Shown here in pieces: positions 2,137 to 58,084 of a DNA stretch of 64,000 nt; positions within the stretch are counted from its first letter, which is position 1; each line of letters opens with the position of its first letter. The translations under genes were made by a program, and so were the position numbers. Origin of the DNA: a phage. The notes beneath the pieces are model-generated. The model was not told where the DNA came from, did no database searches, and worked only from the letters and a program-made list of their open reading frames with translations. The DNA lies in sequence record NC_104726.1. The stretch is one strand, 5' to 3'.

Positions 2137-5100
2137 TTACTTCAGTTTCTCTTGCAACCCAGTAACAACCTCTGTCAATTTTTTAACCTGCTCCTCAAGG
2201 GCGGTTATTTTATCGTCCTGTTCCCTGCAAACCTGGACAAGCAAGCCTGTTACGGCTGCGTAATCCACGCTATAGAATCTTTCCTCTGTTATCAAAGGAG
2301 TTCCATCTTGATCAGAGTTTGGGATTTCCTTTCTTTGCACGAAAGAGCTAACTGCTTCCGGCAGCGCTTCAAGCACTTCTTGTGCTATAACACCTGCATA
2401 AGGCATACCGTTCTCTTTAAGAGTGTAAGTATAACCCTTCATCTTCCGGATAGCTTCTAACGCATCAGGAATAACAGCTATGTTGTCTTTCAGGTCTCTG
2501 TCAGAGCTCTGATTGACAGATGTGCAATTCACTGCACCGTTTACAGAAAGATATCTTGATTTATCCGGCAAGGTACCGCAATGCCATACCCAATTTGCTT
2601 GAGACTCGTCAAGAACCTTAAACTCTAACACGTTTGGACGAGCCCCTGTGCTGCCGTTACCCCAATAATGCATATGGGCGGCATTAGCAGGCATGTTGCC
2701 ACCGTTATTAGTAACATGGCTTCCAGAAATATACACCTTTAACTCTGGGGTAGGTATTTCCCCTTCTGGGGTTGTTCCTCCATACCTGAAGCTAACACCA
2801 TTACCACCTGTTTGGGTCCACGGTCCCCAAGTGAAGACCTGTTTCACCATATTCCCATAACGTGTAAATCTATCGCCATGATAGGTAATATACTCTTGAA
2901 CACACCCATTACCATTATTGGCGTTATTTTGCAACACAATAAGTGTTCCGGCCTCATTTACGGGATAATGACGATCATATGTTGCATCATTATTTGCAGG
3001 CTGATGGTAAATACCTTCCCACAATCCGTGATAGGTGTTAAGGTCTGAAGTACCAAGACCCTGACCCCTGTGTTGCATAGCCTTATTCCAGGGATGGTGA
3101 TTACCACCTTCTATAGACCTGGTATACAAGTTACTTTGTCTGCCAGCAATCTGGAAAGCGTAGTTTCCAGAGAATCCTACAGATAAACCGCCTACAACCA
3201 TGGTATCTTGTGGGCCGTTAACATTACCAGCTATTATTTTTGACGGGTTGTTAGGCCCAAACTGGTTGTTCCAGTCTGCACCCGTGTGGCATACAAAACC
3301 ACCAGGAGCTGAGAAAGTGCCATCTTTGTTGAAATTGTAGAACTTATGAGCTGTACCTACAACATCGCGAACGATAACTTGACCAGCTTCCGGAGTAGAT
3401 CTGAACTCTGCCTGGCCTTGCAGTCTTGCACCATTACCACATTTAGAGGTAAAGGTGTTGTTGATCAGATCCTCTGTTCCTTCCGATGCAGCTTGGAACC
3501 CTGCGTTAGAGAACAGTGCTTTTCTAGTGGTCTGACTGCCAGGACAAATGTAGTCAATACCGTCTGCCCATAGCTCGACTTTTGGCATATTCATTTTGCT
3601 CATCACAGCATAGCGTTCAGCAGTGCCTATATAGTGCCACTGTGTGCCGCCACCAGTGTAGAACCCTGAAGTCCCTTTGAAGTCAACAATAGGTCTGGTG
3701 TTGGTATTATTATCTCCAAGAACAGCAAGATTCAAATCTGCTGACTGGAGAGGTGCAACGAACTTAACACCGTCCTGATTGTCTGTTACAGAGCCAACCT
3801 GGTAATCTTGCTCCCTGGTAAACACCTCGACAACATTTCTACTTGCGTATATGCTGACAGGGAAAGCACGCGCCTCTGCATAGAAAGCAACATATTCTTG
3901 TTTACCCCTTGTTGGAGCAACCATCCCAAGAAGTGCTTTTTCATTCTGGTAGAAATTTACTACCCCGTAGAAAGAGTCTCCTCTGTTTGTCCAACCACCA
4001 GTTCTATAGTGACACTGTAAGGTCGCACAGTTCATAGGGTCATTTCCAGATGAAGACCTGGTGACTATAGTAATATCTGTACCTGTCGAAGGGGCGTAAT
4101 ACGGATCTGTTCTAACGATGATTGGGTAGTATTTCCCATCTTCCATCCCTGCGGTTCTTGGCAGTGTTAAGAAGTCTTTTACACCTGCTGCTATAGGAAC
4201 TTTGAACAGATTCTGAGCGTCTGCTAAAGTTGTAGCCCCAGTGCCACCTGCGGCTTGAGGTAGAGGTTCCCACTTGGCCTTCCGGTTGTTATAAACACCC
4301 CATTCAAGCGTTCCTTCACCTTGCTCGTCCATACCGCCATCCCAGACAACCATCTTGGCGGCTTTCTTGGACCCCCAGAAACCTCTTTCTGCCCCTGAAC
4401 TACGGATCCACTCTCCAAGTCCCCAGTTTGCCAGCTGACCGTTCAGATCACCAACCTGCATATATTTAGGACAATCTAAGACCCCATCCTCACGGAAGCC
4501 TAAATAGCTATGAGTTTCAGATCCTTTTGCGCCTTTGTGCAGGTGGATTGTCAACCAAGCCTTATTGTCGTTTCTTACCTCAGAGTAGATCCTATACCCA
4601 TGCTCAAGGACACCGTCAGCGCCGTATTTATCCCCATGGAGAATACCTGATGGAGACTTAACCTCAGAAGTGCTTTGAGATAGGTAAAGGTTCCCGAAGG
4701 TAGGGGTATTTCTAGACCCGAGACCGATGTGCGATCTAAAGGTATCATCGTTACGAGGTCTGACCATCGGCTGCCATGCAGTCCACTGATTTGTGTTGGC
4801 CTGATAGGTTCTCAAATACCAAACATCTACGTTAGAGAATGGATAGTATTCCTGACGACAACCTGTACCGCCGTTAGCATTGTTCTGCCAGACAATCAAG
4901 TGACCAGCACCAGAACCTGCAGGGTAACCATTTGCCTCAGTTGCATAAGCAGTCATCGGCTGGTAGTATACACCATCCTGATTACCAGTCAAGTTATTGA
5001 TATTGAAATTTGGCTCAAGGGCTGCACGTTGCTTATAGAAAGCACCGATATTGATACGGACCCCAGCGGCATCTCTAGCCCCTGTGCCGCCTTGCTCTAT

Positions 5101-26774: not shown

Positions 26775-27753
26775 CCTTATATTCAAAGGTGGTCGCAACA
26801 CCACCCTCCGCACCATTACGTGCCGCTGCATGTTACCATGCAGAGTAGACTATATCACCACCCATCTCAGGGTGCTTCGCTTTTCGAGCGCCATAGGCTT
26901 GCGCCCTACTCCCTCTCGGGATAGTCGTTGAACTACATTACCAATCGTAATTGTTTGAAATATAGGTGTAAGTCTTACGGTCTTTTATTCCTTTAACAAC
27001 ACTAAAACTTACGCCCCACTTCTTAGCTATTTTATTTACACACAAAACCCTATCACTAAGATCCTCGCAGATACCTATTATCTTGTGCTCACTTATCCTA
27101 TTAGAGGTTGGCACTTTTCTAAAGTTAAACTCTTTAGAAATATCTGGGTATACTGAGCCATTCTTTATACCACTTACAAGTGGTTGATTGACACCAAACA
27201 TTTCACAAATGTCTTTTACCCTTGCACCTTGCTCTAACAGTCTACATATTTCAAGAGCAGTGGCATCATCTAGGGACCTGTATTTATTGACATAGTCCTT
27301 TTTAAGTCCCATTTCATGAGCATGATGTGTGTTTTCCTCAGGTGTTGTCCACTCAAGGTTCCATGCGGCGTTATTCAACTTATTGCCATCAAGGTGATTT
27401 ACTTGAGTTTTCACGCTGGGATTATCATTATCAACAAAAGTCATAGCAATCACTCTGTGAACGAGCACTTGGAACTTTTTACCGTCCTCGCACAAAGTTA
27501 CCATAGCATAGCCAGTCTTTTTCTGCACATTAGGATGGAGGAATTTATTAGAATACAGACTGTAAATTCTGCCATCGTATGTAGCACAATAATGATTGTA
27601 GCCTAAAAAGCCTAAATTTTTCATTTCAAACATCTCCCTACTACAGGTTCGGAAGGGTAATTATAGCTGCTGATTGTCCGTTTAGCAATCGGATTTTCCA
27701 GCAATTAACGAAGTTATTCGACGTGCATTTCTGCACGAAGCCACTATCATTTA
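26775..27753 (-). mobile_element. group I intron 2 in terL, carrying HNH homing endonuclease ORF
   Basis: interrupts terL between ...SFSFIGATI and FDNPVCL...; coding strand carries R-like GTTCAACGACTA (26933-26922) and S-like GATATAGTC; exon ends in U, intron ends in G; boundaries +/- ~15 nt. Confidence 0.6.
26938..27633 (-). CDS. intron-encoded HNH homing endonuclease
   Basis: 231 aa; HNH motif HRVIAMTFVDNDNPSVKTQVNHLDGNKLNNAAWNLEW; lies wholly inside terL intron 2. Confidence 0.75.
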   Translation of the reverse strand: MFEMKNLGFLGYNHYCATYDGRIYSLYSNKFLHPNVQKKTGYAMVTLCEDGKKFQVLVHRVIAMTFVDNDNPSVKTQVNHLDGNKLNNAAWNLEWTTPEENTHHAHEMGLKKDYVNKYRSLDDATALEICRLLEQGARVKDICEMFGVNQPLVSGIKNGSVYPDISKEFNFRKVPTSNRISEHKIIGICEDLSDRVLCVNKIAKKWGVSFSVVKGIKDRKTYTYISNNYDW

Positions 27754-28073
27754 ATGGTTGCGCCTATGAACGAGAATGACAACGGTCTTGGCTTGATCTC
27801 TACGCCAAGTCCGTTAACCGTGGTGTATTTCTCTATCAACTCTTCTTTAGAATCTCCCCATATAAATTCACCGTCGCGTCGGATAAAATATCTTTTCTTA
27901 CCGCATTTCTCCGGATCTGGATACCCTTCATCGTCCAACCACCATCTAACCAGTTTGGCAAGCATGTGTTCTGAATCTGGGTTACAGCTGATAACCATTC
28001 TTGATGGATACTTTGACTGAGATCGCAGACGAGACATCAGATAGTCTATCTGCTCCCATTCGAATTGTGTCGT
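27754..28073 (-). CDS. terL: terminase large subunit, exon 2
   Basis: TTQFEWEQIDYLMSRLRSQSKYPSRMVISCNPD...; in-frame continuation upstream of the annotated Met. Confidence 0.65.
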
Positions 28074-28390
28074 CTATGTTCGGGCAAGGTCGCTAGTCTT
28101 GCCCCGCCATTTTTCAGGCAGCTGCATGTCTCCATGCAGACCAGACTATATCTTATAAGCGACAACAACCGCTTACCCTCCCGTTTCGAATCGCTTGATT
28201 CTACGTCTTTCGACTAGTCGTTGAACGTTCATCCTCTCGGATGCTTCGCTGCGGATTATCTAAATTAACACACTGTTACCATACCTTCGATCTCTCTTCG
28301 AAGCCTCTATCATGTTACCATGACAGGTTGGTGGTGTCAATAATAAAGATTTCCCCGCAATTAGGGAGGTTTTACGAGAGCTACAAATTA
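28074..28390 (-). mobile_element. group I intron 1 in terL (no ORF)
   Basis: separates Walker-B exon (…MVCFDEG) from exon 2; coding strand has GTTCAACGACTAG (28225-28213) and AAGATATAGTCTGG (28154-28141); begins after U, ends with G; shares CTGCATG-N5-CATGCAG hairpin with intron 2. Confidence 0.6.
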
Positions 28391-28816
28391 ACCCTCATCG
28401 AAGCAAACCATGGTGTACTCAAGCCCTTGATGGTTAAGCTTATCTTGTACATACTCCATGTGGCAGTATTTTACAACAGCTCCCTTTTTGCTTCTATCCC
28501 ACTTACCAGTGTTAGGATCAAACCGTGGAAAAATGAACTTATGATCCTTCTCTCTGAACTTTGGCTTAATGTTTTCAGGCAGATCACTATAAATAGCTAC
28601 TGCTTTAGGCCATAGTCCACCCTCACCCTCCAACTGTGGAGTTGTTCTTCGGAACATAACCACAGAGCTGTGGGGGTCATCAATAATTTTAAGCGGCATC
28701 AACTGCAAAAGGAACGACTTGCCAGACCCTGCGGCACCGCCGATTACCAAAATATCTGCATCGTTTTCGAGGATCATCTTCTGCTTTTCAGAACACGGTC
28801 CGTAAATCTTAGACAT
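28391..28816 (-). CDS. terL: terminase large subunit, exon 1 (ATPase N-terminus)
   Basis: Walker A GGAAGSGKS and Walker B MVCFDE; ORF track 28388..28816 ends at an in-frame stop that is the first codon of the intron. Confidence 0.75.
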
Positions 28817-29919: not shown

Positions 29920-29996
29920 TGGTCTCCACGGAGTGATTCGAACACTCGACCTCCTGATCCCAAATCAGGCGCTCTACCAAGCTGAGCTACGCGGAG
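29920..29996 (-). tRNA. tRNA-Pro (anticodon UGG)
   Basis: manual fold: acceptor CTCCGCG/CGTGGAG, D arm GCTC..GAGC, anticodon loop TTTGGGA, T loop TTCGAAT, encoded CCA. Confidence 0.75.
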
Positions 29997-30007
29997 TATT
30001 TACTATT

Positions 30008-30082
30008 TGGTGGCCCTGGGTGGAATTGAACCACCGTCTGGCGATTATGAGTCGCTTGCTTGAACCTTCCAGCTACAGGGCC
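30008..30082 (-). tRNA. tRNA-Met (anticodon CAU; Met/Ile2 type undetermined)
   Basis: manual fold: acceptor GGCCCTG/CAGGGCC, anticodon loop CTCATAA, T arm GGTGG-TTCAATT-CCACC, encoded CCA. Confidence 0.7.
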
Positions 30083-30083
30083 T

Positions 30084-30159
30084 TGGTGCTGATGGCAGGA
30101 CTTTAACCTACAACCTATTGATTACAAATCAATTGCACTACCGATTTTGCTACATCAGC
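30084..30159 (-). tRNA. tRNA-Thr (anticodon UGU)
   Basis: manual fold: acceptor GCTGATG/CATCAGC, anticodon arm ATTGA-TTTGTAA-TCAAT, encoded CCA. Confidence 0.7.
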
Positions 30160-30164
30160 AAAAA

Positions 30165-30263
30165 GGTGCTAGGTGATGGAATCGAACCACCTATGTATTC
30201 AACGACTACCTCGTCTATTTTCAGGATTAAAAATCCTCGCCCTTGCCAAAGGGCTTACCTAGC
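30165..30263 (-). tRNA. atypical tRNA-Lys (anticodon UUU) with ~29-nt extra hairpin in variable region
   Basis: acceptor GCTAGGT/ACCTAGC, D arm GCCC-TTTGGCAA-GGGC, anticodon arm AGGA-TTTTTAA-TCCT, T arm GGTGG-TTCGATT-CCATC; 99 nt, extra segment AAAATAGACGAGGTAGTCGTTGAATACAT between anticodon and T arms. Confidence 0.5.
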
Positions 30264-30361
30264 TCAGTATGTTGACCATGTTGCTAGTCGGCGATGACGA
30301 CTGTAACATTTGATAATCCGGTTCTGCTTCCGACTTTCGCTTAATTACAAGGTCAACAATG

Positions 30362-30452
30362 TGGCGGAGAGTAATGGAATCGAACCATCATCGAGTCATC
30401 CTCAACGGGACGGTTTTCAAGACCGCTTGAGCACCATTGCTCCCTACCCTCC
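30362..30452 (-). tRNA. tRNA-Ser (anticodon UGA), type II
   Basis: acceptor GGAGGGT/ACTCTCC, anticodon arm GCGGT-CTTGAAA-ACCGT, long variable arm, encoded CCA. Confidence 0.7.
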
Positions 30453-30566
30453 TTTATAAATAATACTGATAATGACACTGATTTTCGAGCAGTTAGTGAC
30501 TAGTATAAACGACGATAAATATCAATGCCATTATCTGTATTATTTATGCATCTAAAAATATAAATT

Positions 30567-30653
30567 TGGTGGGGAGTGGTGGAGTCGAACCACCCGAGTC
30601 GCAATGACAATAGATTTACAGTCTACACCGCTACCTCTACGGGATAACTCCCC
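30567..30653 (-). tRNA. tRNA-Tyr (anticodon GUA), type II
   Basis: acceptor GGGGAGT/ACTCCCC, anticodon arm GTAGA-CTGTAAA-TCTAT, long variable arm, T arm GGTGG-TTCGACT-CCACC, encoded CCA. Confidence 0.65.
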
Positions 30654-30657
30654 AATT

Positions 30658-30732
30658 TGGCACCCCGTACTGGACTCGAACCAGTGTCAACGGCTTAGAA
30701 GGCCGCTGCTTTATCCACTAAGCTAACAGGGC
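30658..30732 (-). tRNA. tRNA-Arg (anticodon UCU)
   Basis: acceptor GCCCTGT/ACGGGGT (two G-U pairs), D arm GCTT..AAGC, anticodon arm GCGGC-CTTCTAA-GCCGT, encoded CCA. Confidence 0.65.
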
Positions 30733-54201: not shown

Positions 54202-54480
54202 ATGAGCTGCGAAAAATCTTTTTTCATCATCATTTACGGTAAGGATAACTGCCCACATTGTGTCAGAGCAAAAGAATTTGCAATCAGCAAAGGTCTGCCT
54301 TTTGTATATAAGACACTTGGCGAGGGCTACACAAAAGAAGAGCTTATTGAGAAGTGTAGTCCAATCGTCCCCCGAACGTTGCCGCAGATCTTCTTAGAAA
54401 GCGATCTTGACAGTATCCATATAGGCGGTGCCGACGATTTCATCTCTTTTGTTAAGAATGGTTTTGGAGAGAAAAAGTGA
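54202..54480 (+). CDS. glutaredoxin-like protein (NrdH/Grx)
   Basis: 92 aa; CPHC redox motif near N-terminus; between nrdB and nrdD. Confidence 0.65.
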   Translation: MSCEKSFFIIIYGKDNCPHCVRAKEFAISKGLPFVYKTLGEGYTKEELIEKCSPIVPRTLPQIFLESDLDSIHIGGADDFISFVKNGFGEKK

Positions 54481-55337
54481 AAGTTGTAAAACGGGACGGT
54501 AGAGAAGAGTTCTATAACGGAATTAAGGTGATCAAGGCGGCAGAGTCCGCCTTACTTGAGTCTGGACATACTGAAGAAGAAGCTTACCGGATCGCTTGTG
54601 CGGTTAATGAAGTTGTTGCTAACAATCTGCCAACCGACCAGTGCACGATCTCTGTAAAAAATATCCATATCCTTGTTGAAGATGCTCTTATGGATATGGG
54701 TTTAAAATGTGCAGCCAGAGAATACATCCAGTATAGACAGACAAGAGATAATAACAGAGAGGCAGGTGGAAAACTGCTTGCAGATATTAGTGGCTTCTTG
54801 GATCGAACTTGTGATGAATTTACAAAAGAAAACGCAAATAAGCCTACTAATCATGTACACACTCATCGCGACCTGCTTGCAGGTATTCTTAGCAAACACC
54901 TTGCATCAACACAGATCCTGCCAGACCGTGTCTCCGAAGAGCACAATAAAGGCTTCATCCATGTGCATGATCTTGACTACTTGATCAGTCCGTTAACAAA
55001 CTGTTGCTTGGTAAATTATCCAGATATGTTGGAAAACGGATTCAACATTGGTAACGCCCATGTCAGTAAGCCGAAGTCAATAGGGGTTGCAACAACAATC
55101 CTTAGCCAAATCTCTAGTGCGGTAGCTAGTGCTCAATATGGTGGTCAGACTATGAGCCATATTGATCATTATCTGGCACAGTATGCTGAAGCGACCTATG
55201 AGAAGAACCTTAAATTTTGCCAGGAACATTGGTTGCCAGATGCTGAAACTGTTGCAATGCAAATGACAGATAAAGACGTGTTTGACAGCATGCAGACGTT
55301 GCTTTATCAGATCAACACACTAACCTCGGTAAACGGT
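54477..55337 (+). CDS. nrdD: anaerobic ribonucleotide reductase, exon 1
   Basis: GTG start overlapping grx stop; ATP-cone; ...FIHVHDLDY...TNCCLVNY...; ends ...QINTLTSVNG, colinear with T4 NrdD ...VNTLFSSNG. Confidence 0.75.
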
Positions 55338-55594
55338 TAACAAACTGGCCGTTTTAAAACTCTGCTAACCTTAGTATGAGGGGTCAGCTGATCGCTGGCT
55401 AACGGGGAACGCTAAGGCGAAAGCTATGCCAATCCCGTGACTAGCTTCACAAGGAGTGAGGCGGTTGTAACGACTAACCTTTTGGTGTAGGGATTATGGA
55501 AGATTCCGAAACGCAGGGGTCTGATTAAGAATCACACGGTGTGATTTCAGGCAAGAGATAGTCTGGCCTTGTGGAAACATAAGGGTGGGGACCG
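55338..55594 (+). mobile_element. group I intron in nrdD (no ORF)
   Basis: 257 nt with stops in all frames between exon 1 (...SVNG) and exon 2 (QTPFITL...); exon ends in U, intron ends in G; R-like GTTGTAACGACTAA and S-like AAGAGATAGTCTGG. Confidence 0.6.
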
Positions 55595-56857
55595 CAAACC
55601 CCTTTTATCACATTAAGTTTAGGACTGGATACCTCGGTCTTTGGTAGAATGATTACCAAAAATTACTTGAAAGTCCACAAAATGGGTCTTGGTGAAGAAC
55701 GGATCACACCTGTGTTCCCTAAAGTGCTGTTCTTCCTAGAAGAGGGTGTCAACATGAACCCTGAGGATCCTAACTATGATTTGAAACGATTAGCTCTGGA
55801 ATGCTGTGCAGAACGTATCTACCCTGACTTCGTATCTGTACCACTAAATAGAAAAGTGACAGGCTCGACAGATGGCAAAGTAACGAGCATGGGTTGCCGG
55901 AGTTTTCTTAGCAAATACAGTGACTTGGAAACAGGCGAGGAGAAATATCTTGGCAGATTTAACTTAGGCGTTGTTAGCCTTAACCTACCAATGATTGCGG
56001 CAAAAGCTAAGACGGAAGGTGTTGATTTCTTTGCAGTTCTTGACGAATACTTGGATCTTGCATACGAGGCTCACCTTGTAAGGGTTAACCGTCTAAAAGG
56101 AACAAAGGCAGGGCAGAACCCCATCATGTGGTGTGAAGGAGCTCTTGCTCGCCTGGATCCTGAAGAGAGTATTGATAAACTCTTCTATGACGGGTACGCT
56201 TCCATCAGCATTGGGTATATTGGTGTGTATGAAACCTGTCAGATTTTGGGTAGAGAGGGTGACAAGGCTTTAGCTCTTGGAATCCTTCAGCACATGAGAG
56301 ATGCTTGTGAGCGATACAAGAAGGAAAGTAGACTAGCGTTTAGCTTGTACGGCACTCCTTCTGAGAGTCTATGCTATAAAGCTGCAACCTGTCTGGATCG
56401 TGAATATCCGGAAGTGTTGAAGCACGAGCATGAATATCTCACCAACAGTTTCCATCAGCCAGTATGGATCAATAGCTCTCCTTTTGATAAGTGGGAGTAT
56501 GAGGAAGGTTTTGCTATGATCTCCTCCGGTGGCAACATCGGATACGTAGAGACACCTAACCTGAAAAACAACCTTGATGCTTTAGAGGCTCTTGTTGACT
56601 TCGGGTATAAACACATTATGTATTTTGGTATTAACCAACCTGTGGATAAATGTCTCAAGTGTGGTTTCTCTGGTGAGTTCAGTGCAACAGCTAAAGGGTT
56701 CTGCTGCCCTGCGTGCGGATGCCACGATGAACAATATATCTCAGTGATCCGAAGAGTGTCTGGATACCTTTCCAGTCCTAACTCCCGTCCTTACAATAAA
56801 GGTAAGCAAGCGGAAGTTATCGAGCGAGTTAAGCACTACGGAAGTTGTGGTTGCTGA
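55595..56857 (+). CDS. nrdD: anaerobic ribonucleotide reductase, exon 2
   Basis: QTPFITLSLGLDTS... colinear with T4 NrdD QTPFVTITFGTGTD; C-terminal zinc site CLKCGF...CPACGC and glycyl-radical motif RVSGYL. Confidence 0.75.
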   Translation, partial: QTPFITLSLGLDTSVFGRMITKNYLKVHKMGLGEERITPVFPKVLFFLEEGVNMNPEDPNYDLKRLALECCAERIYPDFVSVPLNRKVTGSTDGKVTSMGCRSFLSKYSDLETGEEKYLGRFNLGVVSLNLPMIAAKAKTEGVDFFAVLDEYLDLAYEAHLVRVNRLKGTKAGQNPIMWCEGALARLDPEESIDKLFYDGYASISIGYIGVYETCQILGREGDKALALGILQHMRDACERYKKESRLAFSLYGTPSESLCYKAATCLDREYPEVLKHEHEYLTNSFHQPVWINSSPFDKWEYEEGFAMISSGGNIGYVETPNLKNNLDALEALVDFGYKHIMYFGINQPVDKCLKCGFSGEFSATAKGFCCPACGCHDEQYISVIRRVSGYLSSPNSRPYNKGKQAEVIERVKHYGSCGC

Positions 56858-56923: not shown

Positions 56924-58084
56924 GTGAGAAAACTTACAACCGAAGATTTTATAGAGGGGGCGAAAGCAGTTCATGGTGATAAATATGATTATTCCAAAGT
57001 CAAATATGTGGGTGCACACACCAAGGTTGTAATTATATGCCCTGAGCATGGAGAATTTAAGAAAACTCTTGGAGATCACCTCCGTAAAAAACAGGGTTGC
57101 CCAAAATGTCAGATTGAAGCAGAAAGAGCGGCTTCTGCTGAAAAATTTAAAGCGGAGGCCGAGGCTAAGTATAATTATAAATATGATTACTCTAAGGTAG
57201 AGTATGTAAATGCTAAAACTAAAGTTGTGATTGTTTGTCCTGTTCACGGCGAGTTTGAGCAAAAGCCTGATAACCATCTCCGCGAGGGGGGTTGCCGTAA
57301 GTGTGGAGGAACTGAGAGAAAGACTACTGAAGAGTGGATCGCTGAGGCAAAAGCGCTTCATGGCGATAAGTATGATTACTCTCTTGTAAATTATAAAACC
57401 GGTAATGATAAAGTGGAGATAATCTGTAATACATGTGGTGCTCACTTCCCACAAAGACCTCATGACCATGCACCAAGTGGAAAAGGTTGCCCCGAGTGCG
57501 GGAAGAAGAAGGTGGCCGAGGTTAGTAGGAAGACGCAGAGAAAGAAAGCATCTGAGGTAGCTAAAAGGTTTGAGGCAAGAGCCAGAGCTATCCATAAAGA
57601 TAAATACGATTATTCCGGGGTGGAATATGTTAATAGGGAGACAGAGGTCACTATCATCTGTCCGATTCACGGGGAGTTCACACAAAAACCGTTTGTCCAC
57701 ATCAACCAAAAAGCTGGCTGTCAAAAATGTGCTAAAGTCGGCTTCTTATCTCATGAACATGGTAGCCTTTATATCATGGTTGACGATCTGGAAGTACCAA
57801 CTATGATGAAAATTGGTGTGAGTGTCCGGGTAGATGAACGAAGAAAAGATGTGTTAAAAAGAGCTAAAAAAGCTGGTGCTAGATTCTCTGATCTACATGT
57901 TATAAAAACTTGGGAAGGAACAACAGACGACATGCAAACTTTAGAAAAAGCTATGCACCAAGCCTTGAGCCAATACAAAATCAACTTCACAGAGAAGTTT
58001 GATGGCTGTCGAGAGTTCTTCTACTACAGACCGGAGGTATTCGAGCTAGTAGAAGAACATTTGAAGAAATTTGCTAATAAATAA
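56924..58084 (+). CDS. homing-endonuclease-like protein: four zinc-ribbon repeats plus C-terminal T5orf172-type domain
   Basis: 386 aa, GTG start; repeats HGDKYDYSKVKYV...ICPEHGEF...GCPKC x4; C-terminal ...GCREFFY resembles T5orf172 domain. Confidence 0.55.
   Translation: MRKLTTEDFIEGAKAVHGDKYDYSKVKYVGAHTKVVIICPEHGEFKKTLGDHLRKKQGCPKCQIEAERAASAEKFKAEAEAKYNYKYDYSKVEYVNAKTKVVIVCPVHGEFEQKPDNHLREGGCRKCGGTERKTTEEWIAEAKALHGDKYDYSLVNYKTGNDKVEIICNTCGAHFPQRPHDHAPSGKGCPECGKKKVAEVSRKTQRKKASEVAKRFEARARAIHKDKYDYSGVEYVNRETEVTIICPIHGEFTQKPFVHINQKAGCQKCAKVGFLSHEHGSLYIMVDDLEVPTMMKIGVSVRVDERRKDVLKRAKKAGARFSDLHVIKTWEGTTDDMQTLEKAMHQALSQYKINFTEKFDGCREFFYYRPEVFELVEEHLKKFANK

Follow-up and report, generated by a model that had tools for sequence, protein, structure and literature searches.

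Introduction

Phage group I introns reside with preference in ribonucleotide reductase genes. The nrdD (sunY) intron of phage T4 is 1033 nt long, has the subgroup IA architecture with P7.1 and P7.2, and harbors a GIY-YIG ORF (I-TevII). In Lactococcus phage 949, another non-coding intervening sequence splits nrdD into two ORFs (PMC3653736). Aeromonas phage Aeh1, with an NrdA split by mobE, provides a precedent for a functional split ribonucleotide reductase (PMC7344957, PMC3653736). For ORF-less phage introns, collaborative homing and mobilisation in trans have been described (PMC3984707), and P7.1 and P7.2 are used as a mark of subgroup IA (PMC3984707, and general knowledge).

We have analyzed nrdD of an rV5-like coliphage, using as the window the whole stretch of 64,000 nt of phage DNA. 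This gene is interrupted by a 257-nt insert which we consider, with a probability of about 0.92 and judging from sequence comparison and predicted folding, to be an ORF-less self-splicing group I intron. It shares with the T4 intron the host gene and the same conserved protein stretch as well as P7.1 and P7.2. In contrast to the T4 intron, it is short and lacks an ORF; furthermore, P3 of the T4 intron is directly followed by J3/4 and P4, whereas two additional hairpins, provisionally named P3.1 and P3.2, are located here between P3 and P4. Phage 949 belongs to an unrelated phage group, and the likeness to its nrdD consists in the ORF-less split, by description only. As for ORF-less introns mobilised in trans, the insertion site is the expected target of an endonuclease encoded elsewhere, here probably the HNH enzyme of a sibling intron. 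As a mobile element, the ORF-less nrdD intron is of a kind that is ordinary in phages, and some GenBank annotations already imply it. It adds one more textbook case in which an ORF-less and an HNH-bearing form compete for the same position within one phage genus.

Predicted splice junction in nrdD

Exon 1 corresponds to an ORF extending from 54477 to 55340 with QINTLTSVNG as its last residues, followed by TAA (ORF list). Exon 2, translated from 55595 as QTPFITLSLGLDTS..., is open to the stop at 56857. Conceptual splicing of both exons results in a NrdD protein of 707 aa. In the Pfam NRDD profile, exon 1 covers positions 1-154 and exon 2 positions 156-562; additionally, exon 1 matches ATP-cone and exon 2 matches Gly_radical. 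Alignment of the spliced protein with T4 NrdD (PDB 1h78) was gapless across the junction (ntltsvngqtpfitlslg / ntlfssngqtpfvtitfg, E = 9.5e-168).

A natural empty site was found in E. coli O157 typing phage 14. Its uninterrupted nrdD comprises 2124 nt, exactly the length of exon 1 plus exon 2, shows 95.5% identity, and is devoid of exactly the 257-nt insert. The first-pass annotation had NrdD split after QINTLTSVNG (55337) and resuming at 55595; this junction proved to be exact and in frame, and the natural intron-less allele agrees with it. Exon changes as compared to intron-less alleles are mostly synonymous, with 4-22 of 707 amino acids differing. At the DNA level, the insert can also be written one base leftward (GG^G), which gives the same protein; the boundaries 55338-55594 were preferred because group I rules require a U before the 5' splice site and a G as the last base.

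Within these boundaries, the three reading frames contain 6, 5, and 8 stops, T55337 precedes the insert, and G55594 is its last base. The longest open stretch has 24 codons, and the insert encodes no homing endonuclease of its own. It had been described beforehand as a small, ORF-less sequence of 257 nt with stops in all frames that follows a U and ends in G, and each of these statements holds.

The proposed colinearity with T4 was found for the protein but not for the insertion site. The T4 intron is located inside codon Y180 (TATGAGT^...CATTG^ATGAAGTG), 32 nt upstream of T4 G190^Q191, the position equivalent to the junction reported here. No T-even record was among the blastn matches of the 257-nt intron. 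On account of the offset, identity with the T4 site was rejected, and with a different site and no T-even match the intron is not assigned to the T4 nrdD (sunY) lineage.

Predicted structure of the intron

The coordinates of exons, intron, and helices are given in Table 1. The insert comprises the group I catalytic core (P3-P8, P4-P6, and P7), a U.G pair in P1, and a terminal G, and its excision restores the reading frame. By the presence of P7.1 and P7.2, which separate P7 from the P3 3' strand, it probably belongs to subgroup IA (IA2-like). The R- and S-like elements pointed out in the first-pass annotation, GTTGTAACGACTAA and AAGAGATAGTCTGG, turned out to be J6/7 with the 5' strand of P7 and J8/7 with the 3' strand of P7, respectively. 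The elements AACGACUA and AGAUAGUC are invariant across about 120 related phage loci.

Table 1. Features of the nrdD locus (positions in the window)
Feature	Position	Strand	Description
nrdD exon 1	54477..55337	+	287 codons; ATP-cone and N-terminal part of NRDD; ends GTA AAC GGT
Exon tract	55280..55606	+	14 synonymous substitutions, -58 to +11 of the insertion site; specific to alleles with the ORF-less intron
P1	55331..55354	+	exon AAACGGU 55331-55337 / guide GCCGUUU 55348-55354; wobble U55337.G55348 at the 5' splice site
Putative ORF-less group I intron	55338..55594	+	257 nt, IA-like; P3 and P4 separated by two extra hairpins
P3, 5' strand	55360..55365	+	CUCUGC, pairs with 55513-55518
P3.1 and P3.2 (provisional names)	55369..55399	+	55369-73/55377-81; 55383-88/55394-99; between P3 and J3/4
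P4	55402-07/55433-38	+	encloses P5 with GAAA loop
P6 and P6a	within 55402..55466	+	P6 55439-41/55464-66; P6a 55444-50/55456-62; covariation of P6/P6a in the subclass alignment
P7, 5' strand	55470..55476	+	A55470, bulged C55471, GACUA 55472-76; guanosine-binding helix; pairs with UAGUCU 55559-55564
P7.1 and P7.2	55477..55507	+	P7.1 55477-79/55484-86; P7.2 55490-95/55502-07; subgroup IA peripheral hairpins; 33-nt insertion in the Rfam alignment
P3, 3' strand; P8; P8a	55513..55552	+	GCAGGG 55513-18; P8 55519-24/55547-52; P8a 55530-37/55539-46; from helix map and MFE fold
P7, 3' strand; P9; tail	55559..55594	+	P7 55559-64; P9 55567-73/55578-84 with GAAA tetraloop; tail; G55594; from helix map and MFE fold
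nrdD exon 2	55595..56857	+	420 codons and stop; remaining NRDD, glycyl-radical domain, Zn ribbon
T5orf172-type ORF	56924-58084		just downstream of nrdD; DUF723 and DUF4379 zinc-ribbon repeats, T5orf172/MUG113 domain

An unconstrained minimum free energy (MFE) fold of the intron recovered P3, P4-P6a, P7.1, P7.2, P8, and P9 with a z-score of -3.38, and none of 200 shuffled sequences folded as well. Compensatory changes were observed in comparison to the sibling intron of phage FFH2. In P1, the exon reads CAACGGU and the guide GCCGUUG (A-U to C-G), P3 reads CUCUCC/GGAGAG (G-C to C-G), and P9 covaries as well (CCUUGUG/CAUAAGG versus CCCUGUG/CACAGGG). P3 pairs in 37 of 39 introns of the structural subclass, forming 30 distinct helices, as compared to 7% with swapped partners; the anchor rules of this test gave own and swapped partners equal freedom. 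Single-sequence folding revealed exactly two hairpins in 36 of 37 distinct homologous P3-P4 segments, and compensatory changes in P3.1/P3.2 were found in FFH2, L003, and L025. When 5' domains of 29 subclass members were aligned with MAFFT and analyzed by RNAalifold, no helices other than P4 and P6/P6a emerged, which we attribute to variable hairpins being out of register. P10 is weak with 2 bp.

A permissive local search aligned the full Rfam model RF00028 to 55328-55584 (+) with 29.8 bits (E = 8e-6 locally and 1.1e-3 for the whole window), covering P1 and P3-P9 with the conserved P4, P7, and J8/7 elements; at the gathering threshold of 50 bits, no match was obtained at the nrdD locus. In this alignment, P3 is wrongly assigned to the 3' strand of P3.2. 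We attribute the sub-threshold score to the P3.1/P3.2 insert. In our view, it reflects a limitation of the model and does not argue against group I membership; this accounts for the score but does not prove activity. The group I core suggested at first reading was recovered with the P1 U.G pair, the terminal G, and both strands of P7 (P7/P7'), and the RF00028 check also matched, though below the gathering score. Additionally, we used an nhmmer profile of the subclass built from 29 related introns with all nrdD copies left out. It matched the window only at 55362-55476 (E = 8.6e-16), in line with the earlier statement that the nrdD intron is not obviously related to the terL introns beyond the generic core; a sequence relation to them was not seen.

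Distribution and the HNH-bearing sibling

Among 120 Vequintavirus records, 13 contain the ORF-less form and 28 an HNH-bearing form at the same site; in the remainder, the site is empty. The HNH-bearing sibling occurs in FFH2, FV3, slur16, and other Vequintaviruses, where the annotation shows no more than an 'HNH endonuclease' flanked by two nrdD ORFs; its insertion site is identical (AACGGT^TAACAAACTGGCCGTT). The 5' 141 nt (P1-P6) of both forms are 86% identical, P7'-P9 is similar, and the P3.1/P3.2 layout is common to both. They differ in the P8 loop, where the sibling carries an ORF of 177 aa (HNH_3 and I-HmuI-NUMOD-like) which the ORF-less form lacks, and the segment from P7.1 to P8 shows no detectable sequence similarity between them.

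A difference was also seen in the flanking exons, which are almost identical to empty-site alleles for the HNH form but diverged for the ORF-less form. Local divergence in the exon tract amounts to 19% as compared to 2-4% elsewhere without a single amino-acid change (Fisher p = 6e-10 against Murica, 2e-6 against typing phage 14, and 1e-4 against ECP26). The 14 substitutions of this tract are consistent with co-conversion. As expected for a homing intron, presence and absence at one site among close relatives are accompanied by a flanking tract; an endonuclease of its own, which a homing intron would also be expected to encode, is lacking. When the lineage was sought by exact patterns beyond Vequintavirus, a single Vequintavirus-like viral contig (L025) was detected, and bacterial genomes gave no match. 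In phage V18, nrdD is broken, with apparent 2-nt scars at both intron sites, which shows that this genus can lose the gene.

Proposed splicing and mobility

We propose that the intron in the pre-mRNA would fold into the P1-P9 core. An exogenous guanosine bound to P7 would then attack the phosphate after U55337, which would be held in P1 by its U.G pair with the internal guide. The 3'-OH of exon 1 would subsequently attack after G55594, joining GGU to CAA and restoring one frame of 707 codons. We infer this course of catalysis in vivo from the conserved core and the exact junction.

At the DNA level, the intron would be an element that is mobile or once was. Recombination with a diverged donor probably brought it in, together with about 70 nt of flanking exon, and it may persist because it is phenotypically silent. 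By its position, it should interrupt the sequence targeted by the sibling's HNH endonuclease; therefore, the genome should be protected from that enzyme. Conversely, the sibling's enzyme could mobilise the ORF-less intron in trans during mixed infections. Both the route of mobility and any present activity are deduced from the distribution of the alleles. Phage T4 does not require nrdD when grown aerobically in the laboratory (general knowledge); hence, selection for splicing could be relaxed. Empty, ORF-less, and HNH-bearing alleles are available in easily grown coliphages, a handy system for studying trans-mobilisation and intron-conferred immunity.

Alternative explanations

Two nrdD genes are annotated in many GenBank records, and an in-frame ATG is present in exon 2 at 55649. 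The insert might thus remain unspliced and NrdD consist of two polypeptides which assemble after translation, as reported for NrdA of Aeh1. We regard this as extremely unlikely. From the in-frame stop at 55580 to the ATG at 55649, no start codon is available, and this ATG lacks a properly spaced Shine-Dalgarno sequence; furthermore, a start at this position would remove 18 residues, among them the conserved motif QTPF(I/V)T that T4 NrdD also contains. Aeh1 NrdA is split by an endonuclease gene and not by a ribozyme-like sequence, and a mere spacer would not retain a complete ribozyme core in which changes are compensatory. The same core bears on a second possibility, namely that the insert is a group I relic which has lost splicing and that nrdD is a pseudogene in the carrier phages. 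The sub-threshold Rfam score, the non-essential nature of nrdD under aerobic conditions (general knowledge), and the broken gene of V18 would fit such a relic. However, the two exons form intact ORFs in the window, in HeinrichReichert, at site 1 of 241Ecol014PP, and in L025, all core helices are intact, and variation among copies is compensatory, not disruptive; the low Rfam score is a trait of the whole structural subclass. A relic is therefore highly improbable.

In the third alternative, the ORF-less intron forms a collaborative-homing pair with the free-standing T5orf172-type gene that follows nrdD, and the product of this gene would cleave nrdD alleles devoid of the intron at its insertion site. 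An ORF-less intron adjoining a free-standing endonuclease-like gene at the same host gene does resemble collaborative homing (PMC3984707). However, apart from the window, this ORF occurs in a single record, typing phage 14, in which nrdD is intron-less, whereas HeinrichReichert and 241Ecol014PP contain the intron and lack the ORF. Other intron-bearing records gave no full match to the T5orf172 ORF region, and intron and ORF did not co-occur beyond the window. On the basis of co-occurrence, the T5orf172 gene is considered a very unlikely partner endonuclease.

The P3.1/P3.2 layout and annotation of nrdD

Of the first 120 matches listed in IMG/VR, about 40 distinct phage introns possess the P3.1/P3.2 layout, and copies of this type also occur in phages of Streptococcus, Lactococcus, Staphylococcus, and Enterococcus. 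None of 15 tested introns with this layout reached the RF00028 gathering score. A literature search of incomplete coverage revealed no relevant description of a two-hairpin insert between P3 and P4. Tentatively, and with considerable doubt, the P3.1/P3.2 insert might define a formally undescribed IA-like subgroup of phage introns which is abundant and missed by RF00028; a consequence would be the mis-annotation of many phage genes as two, among them nrdD of most Vequintavirus records.

The practical value of these results lies in annotation, since the standard Rfam threshold overlooks the nrdD intron as well as all 15 tested introns of the same layout. A literature search for a paper on the Vequintavirus nrdD intron found none. 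Among the best 30 nrdD records, a single nrdD feature was present only in those of the BASEL collection; most others showed two or three nrdD 'genes'. In three BASEL records among the best matches, nrdD is split as a joined CDS of a length that fits the 257-nt intron; the intron boundaries in this collection were set by comparative genomics (PMC8594841).

Structure of the interrupted nrdD gene

The window originates from an rV5-like coliphage of the genus Vequintavirus. Its nrdD query region shares 99.6% identity with Escherichia phage HeinrichReichert; for many other members of the genus, the values are ~95-99%. Conceptual fusion of the two nrdD exons gave a protein of 707 aa, which aligned without gaps across the junction to T4 NrdD, a protein of solved structure (PDB 1h78). 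In Escherichia coli O157 typing phage 14, nrdD is uninterrupted; its 2124 nt correspond exactly to the summed length of both exons, and the identity is 95.5%. The junction of this allele reads ...GTCAACGGG|CAAACTCC... as compared to ...GTAAACGGT[257 nt]CAAACCCC... in the window. The Pfam split, the T4 alignment and this empty allele therefore show that the first-pass annotation, which had proposed a split at 55337/55595 and colinearity with T4 NrdD, was correct to the base. Likewise, the insert is ORF-less as described, with 5-8 stops in every frame and open stretches of at most 24 codons within the 257 nt.

The HeinrichReichert record contains nrdD as a two-piece joined CDS of a length fitting a 257-nt intron, and AlexBoehm and RudolfGeigy, the other BASEL records with the intron, have a single nrdD feature each; the intron, an element of a very well known kind, is thus already recognized in public annotation. 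According to the BASEL study (PMC8594841), comparative genomics served to define the intron boundaries. The rV5 genome paper mentions only terL introns, and no paper describing the ORF-less Vequintavirus nrdD intron was found in the searchable literature. New here are a description of the fold and of the Rfam blind spot, as well as the three-state polymorphism and the putative co-conversion tract.

Features of the nrdD locus and of other regions of the window, with the covarying pairs of the larger FFH2 intron
Feature	Position	Description	FFH2
nrdD exon 1 ORF	54477..55340	ATP-cone; Pfam NRDD profile, first 154 positions	
Insert	55338-55594	257 nt	
P1	55331-37 / 55348-54	Exon AAACGGU, guide GCCGUUU; U55337.G55348 at splice site; covarying exon A / guide U	Exon C / guide G
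P3	55360-65 / 55513-18	CUCUGC / GCAGGG	CUCUCC / GGAGAG
P3.1	55369-81	CCUUA / UGAGG	CCUC / GAGG
P3.2	55383-99	GUCAGC / GCUGGC	GUCGG / CCGGC
P4	55402-07 / 55433-38	Encloses P5 with GAAA loop	
P6, P6a	55439-66		
P7	55470-76 / 55559-64	A55470, bulged C55471, GACUA 55472-76; UAGUCU	
P7.1, P7.2	55477-86, 55490-507		
P8, P8a	55519-52		
P9	55567-84	GAAA tetraloop; CCUUGUG / CAUAAGG	CCCUGUG / CACAGGG
Terminal G	55594	End of intron	
nrdD exon 2	55595-56857	By translation; NRDD profile 156-562, glycyl-radical domain	
386-aa ORF	56924-58084 (+)	67 nt downstream of nrdD	
RF00028 match	28122-28400 (-)	84 bits; standard P3-J3/4-P4 architecture	
RF00028 match	27402-27763 (-)	24.4 bits, E = 0.047	
RF00028 match	26826-27064 (-)	31.2 bits, E = 4e-4	
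tRNA genes	29923-30732 (-)	At least six; two matches weak or long-armed	

Group I fold and two additional hairpins

Its predicted fold identifies the insert as a group I ribozyme. The covariance search suggested earlier was carried out, and Rfam RF00028 matched 55328-55584 over the full model length with 29.8 bits (E = 8e-6 in a local search, 1.1e-3 in the whole 64-kb window). This score is significant but falls short of the curated gathering threshold (50 bits); a default Rfam scan is therefore silent. Folded without constraints, the 257 nt on their own gave a minimum-free-energy structure with all nested helices, and none of 200 dinucleotide shuffles was as stable (z-score -3.38). The P7.1 and P7.2 hairpins are hallmarks of subgroup IA. 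The U noted before the insert forms the U.G pair of P1, and the G noted at its end is the terminal G of the intron.

Directly after the 5' strand of P3, two adjacent hairpins, provisionally named P3.1 and P3.2, precede J3/4 (UA(A)) and P4. The low Rfam score is attributed to them; in the RF00028 alignment, P3 is assigned to the 3' strand of P3.2. When IMG/VR was scanned for the P4...P7 core, at least 120 phage loci matched, and ~40 non-redundant loci among the matches listed have the same layout: P1, AAAA, P3, a (U/G)GAAC-type linker, hairpin, GGUGUG, hairpin, GCUA, P4. Using anchor-defined windows (strand upstream of the hairpins, strand after P7.2), P3 showed at least six contiguous pairs in 37 of 39 introns, with 30 different sequences, as compared to 7% for swapped partners. 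Folding gave exactly two hairpins in 36 of 37 distinct inter-P3/P4 segments. The hairpins are not a displaced P2, since some members of the subclass (L032, L046) possess, in addition to them, an ordinary P2 located between P1 and P3.

RF00028 has a systematic blind spot for this subclass: at the gathering score, none of 15 subclass introns (15 IMG/VR loci, L007-L046) was detected, and the two matches reported among these loci, in L029 and L023, fall outside the subclass introns. An nhmmer profile of the 5' domain, built from 29 introns with all nrdD copies left out, had a single match in the window, at 55362-55476 (53 bits, E = 8.6e-16), and none at the terL introns, in agreement with the earlier remark that the insert is not obviously related to these. 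No description of the two-hairpin layout was found in the searchable literature, the coverage of which is incomplete.

Three allelic states of the nrdD site

A larger intron occupies the identical site in 28 records, among them FFH2, FV3 and slur16. Over its first 141 nt it shares 86% identity with the ORF-less intron, and its P7'-P9 end is similar; the P8 loop is filled by a 177-aa HNH_3, I-HmuI-NUMOD-like ORF. Compensatory changes between both introns were found in P1, P3, P3.1, P3.2 and P9. Furthermore, the intron 3' tail appears to pair and covary with the first codons of exon 2 (GGGG...CCCC vs GGAG...CUCC in FFH2), a single event.

Among 120 phage records holding this nrdD, 13 contain the ORF-less intron (at least 98.8% identity) and 28 the HNH form; the remainder presumably have an empty site. 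This was confirmed directly for typing phage 14, ECP26, Murica and EPFV3, and single-piece matches were obtained for many other records. The ORF-less alleles compared (those of the window, HeinrichReichert, 241Ecol014PP and viral contig L025) all have 14 synonymous substitutions from -58 to +11 of the site, which occur neither in empty alleles nor in the HNH-form allele. Divergence in this tract is 19% vs 2-4% elsewhere in nrdD, with no amino-acid change (Fisher p = 6e-10 vs Murica, 2e-6 vs typing phage 14, 1e-4 vs ECP26). On sequence grounds, the tract looks like co-conversion from a diverged donor. HNH-form flanks, unlike ORF-less flanks, are 98.6-100% identical to empty alleles. Exact-pattern scans revealed no member of this intron lineage outside Vequintavirus; the structurally closest relatives reside in other genes or at other sites, one example being the intron in the distant nrdD of L029.

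Probable splicing, proposed acquisition and alternative explanations

The best explanation, with a probability of about 0.92, is ordinary guanosine-initiated self-splicing, restoring nrdD. An unspliced gene encoding NrdD as two polypeptides is unlikely. Translation of exon 2 could begin in frame at ATG 55649 at the earliest; this start is without a spaced ribosome-binding site and would cost 18 residues, among them the conserved QTPF(I/V)T motif. The insert is also unlikely to be a dead relic because the exons are intact and the variation is compensatory.

The self-splicing ORF-less intron would have been acquired by recombination. With respect to the HNH endonuclease of the sibling intron, trans-mobilization or immunity may be considered, within the framework given in PMC3984707. 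A partnership with the T5orf172-type gene downstream of nrdD is not supported, as intron and gene do not co-occur beyond the window; the only other phage record with this ORF is typing phage 14, whose nrdD is intron-less.

Other introns in nrdD

The protein colinearity with T4 did not extend to the insertion site. The T4 nrdD intron (1033 nt, encoding I-TevII) lies inside codon Y180 (...TATGAGT|TAACG......ACATTG|ATGAAGTG), whereas the T4 equivalent of the window site is G190|Q191, 32 nt downstream; the introns thus occupy different sites in one conserved nrdD stretch. The T4 intron is without the extra P3/P4 hairpins and has no detectable sequence similarity to the window intron.

Some relatives contain a second nrdD intron (762 nt, HNH ORF; 241Ecol014PP, 3928-4689) at ...SMG|CRSFL..., where the window is empty (between 55894 and 55895). 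On visual inspection, its 5' core (GCUCAUGUAAAAUCUACCUAAACGGGGAAACUCC) is very similar to that of the T4 nrdD intron; the site differs. Escherichia phage V18 (KY683736, 715-2837) has an unannotated, frameshifted nrdD. At the first site (window 55337/55595) it keeps the ORF-less flank haplotype but lacks the intron together with 2 nt of exon 2 (...AAACGGT--AACCCC...); at the second it has 2 additional nt (GGG-ATA-TGTAGAAG) and the exon-flank haplotype of that intron. The pattern suggests that both introns were lost imprecisely at the DNA level, or else that the record contains an assembly artefact. In L029 (~700-2225), a distant phage nrdD, three selfish elements reside in one gene: an intein (Intein_splicing match), a P3.1/P3.2-type intron after Pfam NRDD position ~104, and a second intron, of standard group I type (87.8 bits), 150-400 nt downstream.

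Additional features of the window

The 386-aa ORF combines zinc-ribbon repeats of the DUF723 and DUF4379 types with a T5orf172/MUG113 (GIY-YIG-like) domain at its C-terminus, and is therefore a candidate free-standing homing endonuclease. Its position between nrdD and nrdG is taken by mobC in T4. The three RF00028 matches lying close together on the minus strand (26826-28400) are presumably the terL introns described for rV5 (PMC3606486); none of them matched the nrdD-type subclass profile. The tRNA genes are clustered on the same strand. About 20 'Campylobacter phage' records (MG0656xx; A135, A147, C2, C5, D1 and others) match nearly the full nrdD region at ~96% nucleotide identity; these genomes resemble Vequintavirus, a genus of E. 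coli phages, and are probably mislabelled or contaminants.
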